64,000 nt of DNA from Candidatus Aenigmatarchaeota archaeon (GCA_016198685.1 JACQID010000006.1:64001-128000), one strand, 5' to 3'. Counted from the stretch's first letter, positions 1,200 through 9,197 are shown. Notes: a model not told the origin generated them from the letters alone. Program-made: numbers and translations.

Positions 1200-1575
1200 T
1201 TTATTCGAATATTTTGTTACGTTTTCTATAACAATGGCGCCATAACGCTGTTATTTCTAGTTTCTATTAACCTTTACAGGAAATAAGGGGGTTATCGAAC
1301 CCACTCACCCCTATATTTCTTGTGGAGATTATTAGAAAAGCTAGAAAACTATTAACCTATACTTCATATAACAATGTTATTAAAAATAAATTAATTATAT
1401 ATGCCTTTCCATAGGAAATGAAGGGGTGTTAGATATTACAAGGAATATATTTTGCTGAATTAACCTTTCAAGTAGCAATAACTATATAAGGCGGCCAGAA
1501 GATTATAGTATCTTCATAAGAAACGGGGGTTCCTTCATTTCTTATGAAGCTTTCTATTTTGGGGAATAGAAAGTT
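1200..1575. other. Probable chromosomal replication origin (oriC) with ORB-like boxes and AT-rich unwinding element
   Basis: Non-coding AT-rich region directly upstream of cdc6. ORB-like boxes: TTTACAGGAAATAAGGGGGT (1273-1292,+), CTCCACAAGAAATATAGGGGT (1307-1327,-), TTCCATAGGAAATGAAGGGGT (1407-1427,+), CTTCATAAGAAACGGGGGT (1512-1530,+), CTTCATAAGAAATGAAGG (1532-1549,-). Nearly pure A/T stretch at about 1376-1402. Confidence 0.85.
1550..1573. repeat. Perfect 9-bp inverted repeat just upstream of cdc6
   Basis: CTTTCTATT-TTGGGG-AATAGAAAG. Confidence 0.6.
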
Positions 1576-1595: not shown

Positions 1596-2849
1596 ATGGA
1601 AGCAGATCAGGAGTTAGTTTTAAGCAATTCAGCAACAAGCGGCAATATATTCTCGCAGTATATTGAAAGCCCGAGTATTTTCACAGATAAGCGCGTTTTA
1701 ACCTCTTCTTTTGTTCCTGGTAGCATACCGCACAGGGAAGAAGAAATAAAGCACATAAGCTCCGTTCTTGCCCCTATGCTCAGGGGTTATCATGCCAATA
1801 ACGTCTTTGTTTATGGGACATGCGGCACAGGAAAAACTATCTGCTGCAGATTCGTTGTTTCCCAATTACAAGAAGCGGTCAAAGCCGCAGCAACACAAAT
1901 TAAGGTCATATACATAAATTGCAAGATGGAGCGGGTTTCCGATACCGAGTACAGGCTTTTTGCCCAAATGCTCAAGCAACTTGGTGAGGAAGTGCCGTAC
2001 ACAGGATTACCAACTGACGTAATCTATAGGAAGTTCTTTGCTAAGGTTGCTGAAAAGAAGCAGAGTGTCATCATCATATTAGATGAGATAGACGCGCTTT
2101 ACAAGAAAGTTGGTGATGATTTCCTTTACAACATAACCCGTGCCAACAATGAATTAGGAGAGGCAAACTTGAGCATAATAGGCATAACCAACGACATATC
2201 TTTCAGGGACAATCTTGACGTGAGAGTGAAATCATCATTAAGCGAAGAAGAAGTGATGTTCAGGCCTTACAATGCCGTGCAGTTAAGGGACATATTGTCA
2301 TCCCGTGCCAAGGACGGTTTTGTCAAAGGGGCCGTGAGCGAGAGCGTCATAAATAAGTGTGCGGCTCTGGCAGCTCAGGAGCACGGCGATGCGCGCAGGG
2401 CTTTGGATTTGTTGAGGGTTGCCGGGGAAGTTGCTGAAAGAATGGGGGAAACAGTCGTCAAGGAAAGGCATGTTGACGTAGCCGAAGAAAAAATAGATCT
2501 TGACAGGATAACCGAGACCGTTAAATCCCAGCCGGCACAATCCCAGCTTGTGCTTTACACGATAATAAAGATGAATGAGGAAGCCAAGCAGAAGGAAAAA
2601 TGGGCCGACAGAAGGCTGCTCACAGGAGACATATTCTCTAAATATGAGGAACTTTGCAGGGCCAATGGCGCAAAGGTTCTTACGCAGCGCAGGATAAGCG
2701 ATCTCATAGGTGAACTGGATATGTTCGGCATAATAAATGCCAAGGTCATATCTAAGGGAAGGCACGGCAGGACCCGAGAGATATCCTTAGCCATGAACGA
2801 AACCGCATTAGGCAAAGTAAGAAACTACCTTATGAACAGGTTTGGATGA
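1596..2849 (+). CDS. cdc6: Cdc6/Orc1 replication initiator (AAA+ and winged helix)
   Basis: Walker A YGTCGTGKT, Walker B ILDEID, GDARRALDLLR, wH region LTQRRISDLIGELDMFGII...SKGRHGRTREI. The ORF track start is 1581; ATG 1596 follows a GGGGTG SD-like site. Confidence 0.97.
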   Translation: MEADQELVLSNSATSGNIFSQYIESPSIFTDKRVLTSSFVPGSIPHREEEIKHISSVLAPMLRGYHANNVFVYGTCGTGKTICCRFVVSQLQEAVKAAATQIKVIYINCKMERVSDTEYRLFAQMLKQLGEEVPYTGLPTDVIYRKFFAKVAEKKQSVIIILDEIDALYKKVGDDFLYNITRANNELGEANLSIIGITNDISFRDNLDVRVKSSLSEEEVMFRPYNAVQLRDILSSRAKDGFVKGAVSESVINKCAALAAQEHGDARRALDLLRVAGEVAERMGETVVKERHVDVAEEKIDLDRITETVKSQPAQSQLVLYTIIKMNEEAKQKEKWADRRLLTGDIFSKYEELCRANGAKVLTQRRISDLIGELDMFGIINAKVISKGRHGRTREISLAMNETALGKVRNYLMNRFG

Positions 2850-3913
2850 TGGACAAAGCTGATATCGTACGGCATTATTTTGACCGGCAGCAGCTTCTGA
2901 CTCCGGCGGCGCTTGATAAGCTATCTGCTGCAGGCAGGCTGCCGGAAACAGATTCCGGGCTTTTTGTCATTGATAAAAGCGATCTTGAGCAGGACAACAT
3001 ACGGATTCTTAAGTGTCTCCAGAGCAGGCCGAAGGAGGTAGACACGGATATGTTCCTGAAATTTTATACGTCCAAATACAACAAAATGCGCGATATATTT
3101 ACTGCGCGTTTCAACAAGAATTTTATCTCCTTGAATAAGGTAGACGCTTCGCGTTCTGAAATAGCGGTATTCGGCATAGTCAAGGATGTGAAAGACAAGA
3201 CAATAGAGCTTGAGGATATGACATCCTCGGTCTCTGTAGTTTTTGAAACTCCGTTGGAAAAAGTGGAGCGCGATGACGCCATTGCAGTCGAGGGTGTAAG
3301 CGGCGGCAAAGTAATCTACGGCAAAAAAATAATGTTTGCAGATGTTCCATTGAGGCAGCCGGCGACGGGCACAGGCAAGGCGTGTTTTATTTCCGATTTG
3401 AGGCTTAGCGAAGCTCCGCGCAAGGAAGCTGAGAAATTCTTTTCGTGGTTCCAGAACCAGGACATCAGGAACCTTTTCATTTGCGGAGACACAGGGGATC
3501 TTGCCGCGCTTGAGGCTATAGTACGCAGATATTGTAGCGGAAAGAATATCTTTGTCGCCCCGGGCGAAGCGGATGACAAAGAGTATCCGCGCTTGCCGCT
3601 TAAGACGCCTAGTGTCACAGCACTTTCGGATCCCGCTATCGTTGAAATCAACGGCATAAAGATACTTGTTATTCATAACTTTGAGATAGGGATGCTGCGC
3701 AAGCGTTACTTGGGCAGGAGCAAGTCTATCTTGCCAGATGACTACTTGGTCTTGGAAGATGTTCCTGATATAGTGCATTGCGGCCATACAGGAAAACCGT
3801 TTGTCCAGAATTACAAGGCCATAACCATAGTCAACAGCGGGTCAATACTGGAGGAATTCAAGCCCGTTGTCATAGATTTTGCCACACGCGAGGTAAGGCA
3901 GGCTGCTTTGTGA
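2846..3913 (+). CDS. DNA polymerase D small subunit (DP1)/B-subunit homologue, predicted nuclease-dead
   Basis: DP1 architecture: N-terminal helical LLTPAA segment, OB fold (EIAVFGIVKD...IELEDMTSSVSV), calcineurin-like fold with degenerate motifs ISDLRL, ICGDTGD, APGEAD, IHNF, VPDIVHCGHTG. Start overlaps the cdc6 stop (ATGA). Confidence 0.88.
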   Translation: MMDKADIVRHYFDRQQLLTPAALDKLSAAGRLPETDSGLFVIDKSDLEQDNIRILKCLQSRPKEVDTDMFLKFYTSKYNKMRDIFTARFNKNFISLNKVDASRSEIAVFGIVKDVKDKTIELEDMTSSVSVVFETPLEKVERDDAIAVEGVSGGKVIYGKKIMFADVPLRQPATGTGKACFISDLRLSEAPRKEAEKFFSWFQNQDIRNLFICGDTGDLAALEAIVRRYCSGKNIFVAPGEADDKEYPRLPLKTPSVTALSDPAIVEINGIKILVIHNFEIGMLRKRYLGRSKSILPDDYLVLEDVPDIVHCGHTGKPFVQNYKAITIVNSGSILEEFKPVVIDFATREVRQAAL

Positions 3914-3950
3914 GACAAACCCGGAAGGCTTTAAGGAGGAGAACGCCCCT

Positions 3951-3964
3951 CCAAAATTTAAATA
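3951..3964 (+). promoter_or_regulatory. BRE/TATA box for polB (likely leaderless transcript)
   Basis: CCAAAA-TTTAAATA ending 22 nt before ATG 3986; preceded by a GGAGG/CCTCC hairpin (3935-3952). Confidence 0.55.
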
Positions 3965-3985
3965 AGCTCGCGGCAAGCTAATTGA

Positions 3986-6658
3986 ATGGCACTTGTTTTT
4001 CAGATACTTGATGTGGATTATTTTCTCAATGGCGATAAGCCTGTAGTCCGCCTCTTTGGAAGAAGTGACGCCGGCAATGCCGTATGCGTATTATGCAGGG
4101 ATTTTCTTCCTTATTTTTACATAAGGCCGAAGAATGAAGAGGCTTTGGATGACGTAAAGGAGATCCTTTCCATAGAAGAAGCGGAAAAATTATTGGCAAT
4201 AGGATATTCAACCAAGAAAACAAGGCTTTTGAAAATCACCATATCGAAGCCGCAGGATGTTCCCATGATTAAGGAACAGCTCCTCAGCCAAGGCATAGCA
4301 GAAGAAGTCTTTGAAGCCGATATATTATTCAAGAACAGGTTTCTGGTTGACCATGACCTGCACGGCATGCAGTGGGCAGAAGCAGACGTTGTCAAGACCA
4401 GTACCAGCACGGTAAAGGTTCCTGCCTTTGAGATGAAATCCATAAAGCCGATGGACAGGAAAGACAACGCCAAACTTTCAATACTATCATTTGATATAGA
4501 GTGCGTGCCATCCGATCCCAACAGGCCACTGGATTCCAAGAAAGACCCTGTAGTCATCATATCACTCTCATTCAACGTTCCTTACAGGGGAACCACGAGC
4601 ATAGTGCAGGTCGCCAAGCCTGTCAACGGAAAAGGGCTGCAGGGATTTCCCAATGAAAAAGACATGCTGGAAGGGTTTCTGCGCGTTATTGACGAATATA
4701 ATCCGGACATAATCACAGGCTACAACATAAACACATTCGACATACCCTACATACTGGAGCGAATGCGGGTGCACGGAATACCGCCCATGCTTGGCAGATG
4801 CAAGGACAAGCCGGCTTATAATAAAAGCACAGGAGTCACGCAGGAATCCATAATTCCGGGCAGGGTGGTTGCGGATCCTTACCAGATATTGAAGAGGGAC
4901 CCAAGAATCAAGTTCAGCCGTTATGACTTAAACACAATATGCAAAGTCCTGCTTGGCGACACCAAAATGGACGTTGAGTACAGGGAGATGCCCAAGCTTT
5001 GGAACGGGCCTCTCGAAGGCGTCTTGCGTTTTGCAGAATATGCACGCAAGGACGCAGAGCTTAATCTGCGTCTTGTGGTTGAAAAGGACATGCTATCCAA
5101 TTTCATAGAAATAGCCAAAGTTTCAGGTACTGTGATGCAGGACACATTCGGCGGCCAGACTTTGCGAATAGACAATATGCTCCTCTATGAGTTCAGGAAG
5201 CGCGGTTATGTTTTACCGGCCAAACCTGATGCCAATTTAATGAATAAACGTACCAATGAAAGGGAAAAAGCAGGGCTCAAAGGCGCAACAGTTCTTGAGC
5301 CGAAGAAAGGATTGCATGCCGAAGGCTGCATACTGGTCATGGACTTCAAGAGCCTATATCCAAGCATAATGAGAACGTTCAATACGTCTCCCGATTCGCT
5401 TCTTGTCGATGATTCGGTCGGCGAGTTTTATACGTCGCCGACCGGCGCGAAGTTCGTGCCTGCATCTGTACACGAAGGAGTGTTTCCGTACATCGTCGGA
5501 AAGCTGCTTGACAGCAGATCAGAAGTCAAGGGGCAGATGAAGGATGCTGACGGCGAAATGAAAAAAATATTGAATGCAAGGCAATATGCGTTAAAAGACC
5601 TTGCCAATTCGTTCTACGGATACACAGGCTATCTGCGGGCGCGCGTTTATGACATACGGGTTGCGAGCACGATAACGGCCATAGGAAGGGAGAACATAGA
5701 GAAGACAAAGGACTTGATTGAAAACAACTTCGACATTGAGGTCGTATATGGCGATACTGACTCGGTTTTCATCAAGACCAAGACCACGAACCTTGAGGAT
5801 GCAAAAAAAATCGGCGAGGATATATCCAAGTTCGTGAGTGAAAGATTGCCAGGTTTTCTTACCCTGGACTTTGAAAAGATATACAGAACGTTCCTTATTC
5901 TTACAAAGAAAAGATATGCCGGATGGAAGTTCGAATTCGGGAAGAATGGATGGGAAGATTCTATAGAGATGAAAGGGATAGAGACGGTGAGACGCGATTG
6001 GTGCAAGCTCGTTTCTGAAACGATGAGAACCGTGCTTGACATAATACTGAAGGAAGGAGACCTGCAGAAGGCGGTCAATGAAACAAAGAGGGTCATAATA
6101 CAGCTCCGCAACAATGAAATAGATTTCGACAAGCTGACCGTTGTAAAAGGAATAACAAAATCTCTTGGAAGTTATGACGGCATGTTGCCGCACATAGAGC
6201 TGGCAAGGAAACTTGCGCAGAGAAACCCCCACGACCCGCCGAAGATCGGCGACCGCCTCGGGTTTGTCATAATCAAGGGCAATCAGATGCTGTCGAAACG
6301 GGCGGAAGATACGAAATATGCAAAGGACAACAAGCTTCAGATAGATTCTGACTACTATATTAATTCCCAAGTCTTCCCCCCTGTAGAGAGGATACTTTCT
6401 TCGGTCGGGGTCGAAAAGAGCGAAGTGTTCGGCTCTGGCCGTCAGTCAACGATAGCAGACATCATGTTCGGAACAAAGCGCAAAATGAAGCATGAAATAG
6501 CCATCAATTACGGCACAGTAGCCGGCTGGGAGGGTCTGGTTTGCCAGAAATGCGCGAAGTCGCATCCGAGAATGCCTTTAAGCGGCAGATGCGAATGCGG
6601 CGGCCCGCTTCTTTTTTCATATCAGGGAAGCGCCGCGCAGAAAGTAGTGACCGAATAG
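3986..6658 (+). CDS. polB: Family B DNA polymerase with intact exonuclease and polymerase motifs, Pol-delta-like core, C-terminal Cys4 zinc finger
   Basis: ExoI SFDIEC, ExoII GYNINTFDIPY, ExoIII YARKD, motif A DFKSLYPS, motif B KDLANSFYG, motif C YGDTDS, KKRYAG, KGIETVRRDWC; PIP-like QSTIADIM (6443-6466); CQKC-x12-CEC (6542-6598). Confidence 0.97.
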   Translation: MALVFQILDVDYFLNGDKPVVRLFGRSDAGNAVCVLCRDFLPYFYIRPKNEEALDDVKEILSIEEAEKLLAIGYSTKKTRLLKITISKPQDVPMIKEQLLSQGIAEEVFEADILFKNRFLVDHDLHGMQWAEADVVKTSTSTVKVPAFEMKSIKPMDRKDNAKLSILSFDIECVPSDPNRPLDSKKDPVVIISLSFNVPYRGTTSIVQVAKPVNGKGLQGFPNEKDMLEGFLRVIDEYNPDIITGYNINTFDIPYILERMRVHGIPPMLGRCKDKPAYNKSTGVTQESIIPGRVVADPYQILKRDPRIKFSRYDLNTICKVLLGDTKMDVEYREMPKLWNGPLEGVLRFAEYARKDAELNLRLVVEKDMLSNFIEIAKVSGTVMQDTFGGQTLRIDNMLLYEFRKRGYVLPAKPDANLMNKRTNEREKAGLKGATVLEPKKGLHAEGCILVMDFKSLYPSIMRTFNTSPDSLLVDDSVGEFYTSPTGAKFVPASVHEGVFPYIVGKLLDSRSEVKGQMKDADGEMKKILNARQYALKDLANSFYGYTGYLRARVYDIRVASTITAIGRENIEKTKDLIENNFDIEVVYGDTDSVFIKTKTTNLEDAKKIGEDISKFVSERLPGFLTLDFEKIYRTFLILTKKRYAGWKFEFGKNGWEDSIEMKGIETVRRDWCKLVSETMRTVLDIILKEGDLQKAVNETKRVIIQLRNNEIDFDKLTVVKGITKSLGSYDGMLPHIELARKLAQRNPHDPPKIGDRLGFVIIKGNQMLSKRAEDTKYAKDNKLQIDSDYYINSQVFPPVERILSSVGVEKSEVFGSGRQSTIADIMFGTKRKMKHEIAINYGTVAGWEGLVCQKCAKSHPRMPLSGRCECGGPLLFSYQGSAAQKVVTE

Positions 6659-7048: not shown

Positions 7049-7225
7049 TTAGATGTGTCTTGCCTTCAAAGTGCCTTCTTTCCTGTACTTGGCTCTTTCA
7101 ACCGCCTTGTCTATCAGGTGCATGACTTCCTTGTTCAGGATTTCAAGGGCATCCGATCCCATTCGCAGCTTCTTCTTCGCCGCGTATTCTTTCACTTTAC
7201 TTCTTACGACAAGCATTTCTGCCAT
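7049..7225 (-). CDS. Single histone-fold protein, 58 aa, short non-nucleosomal type (absent from the ORF track)
   Basis: Manual translation MAEMLVVRSKVKEYAAKKKLRMGSDALEILNKEVMHLIDKAVERAKYRKEGTLKARHI; SD GGTGA 7 nt upstream; TATA-like TTATATAA at 7261-7268; three consecutive stops (TAA TAG TAA). Confidence 0.85.
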   Translation of the reverse strand: MAEMLVVRSKVKEYAAKKKLRMGSDALEILNKEVMHLIDKAVERAKYRKEGTLKARHI

Positions 7226-7306
7226 TTCTAAATCACCTTTTCCTAATTTCCGTTGGAAGTTTATATAACTTATGCCAAGGCCCGTTTTAAGCGGTTTTAG
7301 CGCATT

Positions 7307-8519: not shown

Positions 8520-9197
8520 ATGCCTGTTTTTGAACTCAAAAGCTGCGGGAAGTGCGGAGGCGACACCTACATAGAAGAGGATCGTAACAGCATTTATAGG
8601 ACATGCCTGCATTGTGGTACTCTGGATGATATCATAGTCAAGTCAGAATCAGGGTATCGTGCAAGATTTCCTACATCGAGCGTGGATGACGACGAAACTG
8701 AGAAATACGTTTCTCCCAAAGACTCGTTGCATGGGCTGAAAAAATACATGGACGTTCTAAGCATGCTTGAAAAAGGCAAGGCATGCAGGGACGATATTCT
8801 TGCAGTTCTAGGCGGGGAGGGCAGTGACAAAGGAAAAGGCACATTTTGGGCCATGATGAAGCAAGGCTATGTGGCTCAAGAAAAGCACGGCAGGCGGGGA
8901 ACGAACTACACAATCACAAAGCAAGGCTTGCATGCCGTTCAGTTTTATAGGGAATGGAAGGACAAAGGCGCTGATATGAATATTCTGCTTTCCGCACTCT
9001 GCGTTATGAGTCTTGTGAGTGAAGAAGGCTATTCGTCTCTGAATGAAAGGGGACGGCTAATCGCATATAAGATGGAAACAAGGAAAATGATAGCCAGAGG
9101 AACGCTGGTTGATCAAGCGCAGAAAGAACTTGAGAAGTACCGTCCGCTTGTGCCGATAGCGATGCATGAATACGGACCCATATATCGTTTGCGATGA
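8520..9197 (+). CDS. Hypothetical protein: N-terminal Zn ribbon plus winged-helix-like domain
   Basis: CGKC-x16-CLHC; central DVLSMLEKG...MMKQGYV...RRGTNYTITKQG resembles a wHTH recognition helix and wing. Confidence 0.65.
   Translation: MPVFELKSCGKCGGDTYIEEDRNSIYRTCLHCGTLDDIIVKSESGYRARFPTSSVDDDETEKYVSPKDSLHGLKKYMDVLSMLEKGKACRDDILAVLGGEGSDKGKGTFWAMMKQGYVAQEKHGRRGTNYTITKQGLHAVQFYREWKDKGADMNILLSALCVMSLVSEEGYSSLNERGRLIAYKMETRKMIARGTLVDQAQKELEKYRPLVPIAMHEYGPIYRLR

Follow-up and report, generated by a model that had tools for sequence, protein, structure and literature searches.

A family B DNA polymerase with a DP2-type zinc finger and an inactivated DP1 homologue beside a candidate origin in an Aenigmatarchaeota genome

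Introduction

A family B DNA polymerase (PolB) that has borrowed a DP1-docking finger, paired with a nuclease-dead DP1 acting as its B-subunit, is central to ideas on the descent of the eukaryotic replicases from the PolB and PolD enzymes of archaea. The closest described systems come from the Aenigmatarchaeota and the Baldrarchaeia. Kazlauskas et al. (2020) described PolB group B6, found mostly in Aenigmarchaeota, reported that DP2 is absent from most Aenigmarchaeota, defined a group of inactive DP1 proteins that co-occur with the B6 PolBs, and proposed that inactivation of DP1 was affordable because PolB proofreads (PMC7544198). More recently, AlphaFold3 predictions and yeast two-hybrid assays in Aenigmatarchaeota, on material other than the genome studied here, and in Baldrarchaeia indicated that DP1 binds PolBs carrying a DP2-derived C-terminal domain (CTD), termed PolB-DP2CTD, and not CTD-less PolBs (PMC12680538, 2025). 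Here, we analyse a 64-kb stretch of DNA from a small archaeon of the DPANN group, Candidatus Aenigmatarchaeota archaeon (GCA_016198685.1, JACQID010000006.1:64001-128000; hereafter the window), in which an orc1/cdc6 initiator gene, a gene for a DP1 homologue with an eroded nuclease site and a gene for a PolB ending in a Cys4 finger follow one another beside a candidate replication origin.

The 2025 study describes the Aenigmatarchaeota CTD as shorter and 'degenerate' and the Baldrarchaeia CTD as full-length, like those of DP2 and of eukaryotes; it attributes the 'B6-aenigma2' sequences, which have two motifs, to contamination from Baldrarchaeia, and it puts forward Baldrarchaeia PolB3 as the closer Pol delta-like form (PMC12680538). 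Eukaryotic CTDs contain CysA and CysB motifs together with a helical bundle, the CysB motif of Pol delta and Pol zeta holding an Fe-S cluster (PMC7544198). An initial annotation of the window had proposed a candidate replicase of eukaryotic architecture and had cautioned that its novelty needed a literature check. That caution was decisive, as the PolB group, the inactive DP1, the missing DP2 and the evolutionary inference had all been published in 2020 (PMC7544198). What the window adds is modest: an origin-linked gene order held across the phylum, a conserved box resembling a PCNA-interacting protein (PIP) motif in the polymerase tail, and the pattern by which the DP1 active site decayed. 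Gene adjacency, linkage to cdc6 or an origin, the PIP-like box and the mosaic decay of the DP1 site go unmentioned in the main texts and searchable supplement text of PMC7544198 and PMC12680538.

Results

Open reading frames (ORFs) were called on the + strand of the window, which belongs to a 935-kb genome in 8 contigs estimated to be 93.7% complete. The layout put forward in the initial annotation, in which an origin is followed by cdc6, a DP1-like gene and polB, is present as described, with the candidate origin upstream of three successive genes whose products and motifs are as follows.

1581-2849, + strand: orc1/cdc6 initiator, 422 aa (TIGR02928, E 2.9e-124; Cdc6_C and Cdc6_lid domains)
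2846-3913, + strand: inactivated DP1/B-subunit homologue, 355 aa, with an N-terminal helical domain, an oligonucleotide-binding (OB) fold and an eroded phosphodiesterase domain
3395-3403, + strand: motif I of the DP1 homologue, D-L-R in place of D-x-H (alignment to canonical DP1s)
3563-3574, + strand: motif III of the DP1 homologue, G-E-A-D in place of G-N-H-D, retaining neither the Asn metal ligand nor the catalytic His (alignment; residue roles from PMC10721889)
3782-3793, + strand: motif V of the DP1 homologue, G-H-T-G in place of G-H-x-H (alignment to canonical DP1s)
3986-6658, + strand: family B DNA polymerase, 890 aa, with a C-terminal extension (PF00136, E 1.9e-108; PF03104, E 1.1e-35)
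6443-6469, + strand: PIP-like box QSTIADIMF of PolB, Q820-F828, located after the thumb domain and before the finger
6542-6598, + strand: Cys4 finger of PolB, C853-x2-C856-x12-C869-x-C871, of the DP2 Zn-III type (DP2 matches, conservation)

Profile searches matched the 355-aa protein only to DP1 models, far under their cut-offs, and to Metallophos_2. The best DP1 model, the curated NCBIfam equivalog NF003118, gave 109 bits against a cut-off of 445, and a PF04042 search of the genome returned no match, the NCBIfam DP1 models and Metallophos_2 being alone in detecting the homologue. An AlphaFold2 model built from 117 homologues, with a predicted local distance difference test score (pLDDT) of 95.9, shows an OB fold, a calcineurin-like phosphodiesterase fold and an N-terminal helical domain, the arrangement found in canonical DP1. 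Its top structural match is P. abyssi DP1 (E 7e-24, template-modelling (TM) score 0.72, 20% identity), followed by the B-subunits of human Pol epsilon, delta and alpha (E ~1e-17, TM 0.61-0.65). The helical domain aligns with the N-terminus of canonical DP1, a domain that binds Gins51 in Thermococcus (PMC9023282).

The active site was read by alignment to canonical DP1s from a PolD-bearing family of the same phylum, using P. abyssi numbering. In P. abyssi DP1 the Mre11-like site comprises D360, H362, D404, N450, H451, H497, H560 and H562 (PMC10721889), and the H451A substitution alone abolishes exonuclease activity (PMC10721889; PDB 6hmf title). The window's protein retains four of these eight residues (D184, D215, H277 and H314) and has replaced the other four, namely three metal ligands and the catalytic His, with R186 standing for H362, E241 for N450, A242 for the catalytic H451 and G316 for H562; the earlier claim that the nuclease motifs are destroyed is thereby borne out. 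Its phosphodiesterase domain additionally shows two deletions of ~20 residues each. Close homologues of the protein bear the names Aenigmarchaeota or Aenigmatarchaeota. In an alignment of 117 of them, the nuclease site has decayed as a mosaic, and the window's copy belongs with the more eroded: the catalytic His is gone in every one (0/117 keep it), and the metal ligands have been lost piecemeal, all seven being kept in 40 of the 117. In distant families of the phylum, large parts of the phosphodiesterase domain are deleted.

The 40 homologues that keep all seven ligands imply that metal binding may persist in some relatives, as might be expected if the DP1 homologue were still an enzyme, a phosphoesterase or a nuclease with a remodelled site, and not purely structural. 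We regard this as very improbable, given the loss of three ligands and the catalytic His in the window's own copy, the consequence of removing that His from the P. abyssi enzyme, its disappearance from all 117 homologues and the extensive deletions in other families. A structural B-subunit is the role that we favour.

The neighbouring PolB is fully equipped by motif reading, with intact Exo I (FDIE), Exo II (NxxxFD) and Exo III (YxxxD) motifs as well as motifs A (DFKSLYPS), B (KxxxNSFYG) and C (YGDTDS). Among solved structures, human Pol delta p125 is its nearest relative (E 4.3e-108), with the PolBs of Thermococcales close behind. Because the nuclease site of the small subunit is dead, proofreading must come from the exonuclease domain of PolB.

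Past the thumb, the PolB chain continues into a tail in which the PIP-like box (residues 820-828) is followed by a basic stretch and then by the Cys4 finger. We compared 30 such tails from across the phylum: in the PIP-like box, 29 of them share Q820 and all 30 have L, I or M at position 823, a pattern consistent with a box that would bind PCNA. The four Cys residues of the finger (C853, C856, C869 and C871) are invariant in 30/30, within the shared patterns G-x-G-R-Q-x-x-L-x-D and W-E-x-F-V-C-x-K-C-x-K-S-Y-R-R-x-P-L-x-G-x-C-x-C-G-G, whose R-x-P-L-x-G core resembles that of DP2 Zn-III. The finger matches positions 1043-1078 of the DP2 model (E 0.003, and 1.1e-4 in a second search) and aligns with residues 1130-1165 of T. 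kodakarensis DP2, in agreement with the initial description of PolB as ending in a DP2-type finger; a phmmer search of solved structures with the tail alone gave a weak DP2 match (E 0.66), for which the alignment is convincing and the statistic by itself is not. With ~75 residues, a single Cys4 motif and no helical bundle, the tail falls short of the eukaryotic two-motif CTD.

To model the contact between the two proteins, we folded the DP1-like protein together with PolB residues 796-890 and a zinc ion, each with its own alignment. The complex scored an ipSAE of 0.61 (0.61, 0.66 and 0.61 in individual runs) against 0.12 for the best control; the calibration set attained the 0.61 mark in 58 of 80 solved complexes and in 2 of 110 mismatched pairs. 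The runs share at least 83% of contacts, with partner pLDDT of at least 55. On the PolB side, the predicted interface comprises W848, L851, residues 861-867 (P-R-M-P-L-S-G within the finger, forming the core), 874-877 and 885-890, and on the side of the DP1 homologue it comprises the helix at 61-78, OB-fold residues 111-143 and residues 294-295. In the window's organism, the finger is thus predicted to dock on the DP1 homologue, in line with what had been proposed for this locus.

The initial annotation had noted that no DP2 gene lies next to the DP1-like gene, and this absence extends further: profile searches of the 93.7%-complete genome found neither DP2 (PF03833, NF003103) nor a second DP1, and DP2 was likewise not found in 19 relatives of the same order. 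Sampling 151 Aenigmatarchaeota genomes, we found a DP1-like match in 140 and DP2 in 8, seven of the latter making up a single PolD-retaining family, f9 (G005, G016, G027, G059, G097, G137 and G138; DP2 in 7/7). The f9 genomes that were checked (G005, G016, G027 and G097) encode a canonical DP1 of 450-494 aa with all five motifs, and their only PolB is CTD-less, at ~770 aa. PolD and the pair of finger-PolB and DP1-like protein are almost mutually exclusive over the 151 genomes.

In a genome of another family, G090, DP1 and DP2 genes adjoin on a 3-kb contig (G090:C64:998-3058), and a finger-type PolB is present in two pieces, each at the end of a contig (G090:C30 and G090:C11); this reflects either real co-occurrence or binning contamination.

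The window's genome encodes a second PolB of 764 aa (L002:1447-3741, - strand, on G000:C1), ~41 kb past the window's end, which has no C-terminal finger and shares ~33% identity with the f9 PolBs. Its Exo I, motif A and motif C (DIE, DFRSLYPS and YADTDS) are intact and active-looking, and the occurrence of a CTD-less PolB in the PolD-bearing family as well means that it may be the older resident enzyme. This second polymerase could then be the main replicase, and the finger-PolB with its DP1-like partner an accessory or specialised enzyme for initiation, lagging-strand synthesis or repair. We consider such a division of labour unlikely, as it is the finger-PolB that takes the place of PolD in the distribution, which published abstracts describe as the essential replicase of other archaea, and as the finger-PolB gene stands at the origin beside cdc6 in most lineages. 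The finger-PolB paired with its DP1 homologue is, in our reading, the probable main replicase.

Gene order at the locus is well conserved. Of 19 genomes from the window's own taxonomic order, 17 have cdc6, the DP1-like gene and the finger-PolB gene in this succession on one strand; in one of these the contig begins within the DP1-like gene, one has a ~870-bp gap before polB, and one has polB interrupted by a 1.4-kb insert. Of the two exceptions, G134 (locus L048) has polB on another contig (C23), and G117 (locus L060) has polB before the DP1-like gene with cdc6 on the opposite strand. At 14 loci from other families, the DP1-like and finger-PolB genes adjoin in most cases, usually with cdc6 upstream, and most families of the phylum keep the order, with proteins that are 24-60% identical. 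The unlinked polB of G134 and the rearranged order of G117 are what one might expect of a chance juxtaposition or an integrated mobile element, as opposed to a functional origin-linked replicase module. Persistence of the order at such divergence speaks against this, as do the 4-bp overlap (ATGA) between the cdc6 stop and the DP1-like start and the lack of any integrase or repeat borders among the annotated neighbours, and we judge it extremely improbable.

Two finger-PolBs of the phylum were found as single long frames of 1390 and 1339 aa (locus L047, G105:C2:350500-359000, and G063:C4:105195-109178). A 1.2-1.4-kb insert splits the match at about residues 539-547, in the motif B region, in one of them and at residues 585-592, in the motif C region, in the other; these inserts are probably inteins at classical PolB insertion sites.

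A further idea is that the order of origin, cdc6, DP1-like gene and polB with finger is the footprint of an event in which a PolB gene took the place of the catalytic body of DP2 within an older oriC-cdc6-DP1-DP2 cluster and left the Zn-III finger as the 3' remnant of the DP2 gene. If true, it would supply physical gene-order evidence for the origin of the eukaryote-type replicase architecture. We think this quite unlikely. Replacement in situ within the phylum finds no support in the f9 genomes examined, where cdc6, DP1, DP2 and PolB lie on separate contigs, these metagenome-assembled genomes being fragmented. The published relationship to Baldrarchaeia PolB3 suggests instead that the fusion is older than the Aenigmatarchaeota or was transferred into them.

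The region around the three genes, including the candidate origin, is made up of the following features.

4-786, + strand: thiolase ORF (domain search)
789-1184, + strand: ChsH2-type OB/zinc-ribbon protein (domain search)
1185-1580, no strand: AT-rich intergenic spacer with repeats resembling origin recognition boxes (ORBs), candidate oriC (GC content and repeat matches)
3957-3964, + strand: putative TATA-like element TTTAAATA, in the 72-bp gap between the DP1-like gene and polB, 22 nt 5' of the polB ATG (direct sequence read)

Archaeal origins of the ORB type are expected to consist of an AT-rich spacer with inverted ORB-like repeats adjoining orc1/cdc6. The 396-bp spacer upstream of cdc6 has a GC content of 0.37, as against ~0.46 in its flanks, and contains elements of the AGGAAAT(A/G)A(A/G)GGGGT type at 1278-1292 (+), 1413-1427 (+) and 1307-1321 (-), as well as a fourth, looser copy near 1516-1533. 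The three close repeats, in both orientations, lie within 150 bp, and three of the four matches with at most two mismatches in the whole window fall inside the spacer. On these sequence features, the spacer fits the layout of an Orc1/Cdc6-dependent origin, and we treat it as a candidate. A scan for sigma-70 promoters and terminators was set aside, the bacterial model being uninformative for an archaeon. The TATA-like element had been listed at the same position by the initial annotation, and it can be read directly in the sequence.

Further downstream on the + strand, a 71-aa ORF lies just 3' of polB (7053-7268), and a 225-aa ORF without a credible Pfam match (8520-9197) lies between a TctA-family transporter gene and a NAC gene.

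Discussion

We read the locus as encoding a two-subunit family B replicase in the form that it takes in Aenigmatarchaeota, corresponding to the published PolB-DP2CTD or 'B6-aenigma1' architecture, with a probability of roughly 0.87. In such an enzyme, the PolB catalytic subunit would supply both polymerase and 3'-5' proofreading activities, and its short tail past the thumb would combine a PIP-like box for binding PCNA with one zinc ribbon derived from DP2 Zn-III. The ribbon, together with the last residues of PolB, would dock on the OB fold and the adjacent helix of the DP1 homologue, which would be retained as a structural B-subunit despite its dead Mre11-like nuclease site. The N-terminal helical domain that the homologue has kept probably serves to anchor the polymerase to the replisome, presumably by binding GINS. 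The genes for this putative replicase sit directly downstream of orc1/cdc6 at the candidate origin, in a genome from which PolD appears to be gone.

Several points weigh against this reading. At 93.7% completeness, the absence of DP2 from the genome is not absolute, and the active-looking, tail-less 764-aa PolB is a second candidate for the bulk-copying enzyme. The polB gene has its own TATA-like element and may be transcribed separately from the DP1-like gene. The ipSAE of 0.61 comes from custom alignments that lie outside the calibration of the score, and it may reflect memory of, and likeness to, known structures and so not be independent evidence, because DP1-DP2 and polymerase-B-subunit complexes have been solved. 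Assignment to B6-aenigma1 follows from shared features, not from tree placement or identity to a listed sequence; on a place in clade B6, the sister of Pol alpha/delta/zeta, the match to human Pol delta p125 bears only indirectly, and the supplement text of PMC7544198 yielded no link to the published accessions OIN85950 and GCA_002789635.

Taken together, the observation made on this window is confirmed and its interpretation supported, for a system that is already known for the lineage. The window is a further example and not a discovery, because this lineage had already served to make the point in 2020, and a test of the contact between the subunits followed in 2025; its additions are useful as annotation and as leads.

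One system with which the locus can be compared is the oriC-cdc6-DP1-DP2 cluster of Pyrococcus and other Thermococcales, which Myllykallio et al. are said to have described in 2000. Both loci present an origin, an initiator gene and then the genes for the small and large replicase subunits; they differ in that polB occupies the DP2 position in the window, and the parallel is unsupported inside the phylum, where the f9 genes lie on separate contigs. Archaeal PolD (P. abyssi 6t8h, T. kodakarensis 6knb) shares the fold of the small subunit (TM 0.69-0.72), its N-terminal helical domain and the sequence of the DP1-docking Zn-III finger, whereas the catalytic subunit of the window is a PolB and not the two-barrel DP2, and its small-subunit nuclease site is dead.

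Eukaryotic Pol delta (p125/Pol3 with p50/Pol31), alpha and epsilon likewise pair a family B subunit bearing a C-terminal Cys-rich module with an inactivated DP1 homologue, but they carry two Cys motifs and a bundle where the window has one finger and no bundle, and the window's DP1 homologue is structurally nearer to DP1 than to the eukaryotic B-subunits. The eukaryotic-type architecture claimed in the initial annotation, a PolB with a finger and an inactive DP1, holds with two refinements: the tail has a single Cys4 motif of the kind termed 'degenerate', and Baldrarchaeia PolB3 is put forward as closer to Pol delta (PMC12680538). That system, PolB3-DP2CTD with DP1, agrees with the window in the fusion of PolB to a DP2-derived CTD, the loss of DP2, and the retention of a DP1 that binds the CTD; it differs in its full-length CTD, as opposed to a tail of ~75 residues with one Cys4 motif (PMC12680538).

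The nearest match is B6-aenigma1 with its inactive DP1 ('Aenigma_GB_GCA_002789635-like' in PMC7544198; PolB-DP2CTD in PMC12680538). The two have in common their lineage, a single Zn-III-like motif, the lack of DP2, the company of an inactive DP1 and a PolB whose core is near to that of Pol delta, and for B6-aenigma1 binding of DP1 to the CTD has been reported by two-hybrid assay and AlphaFold3. Between that published pair and the pair encoded in the window, we see no essential difference.

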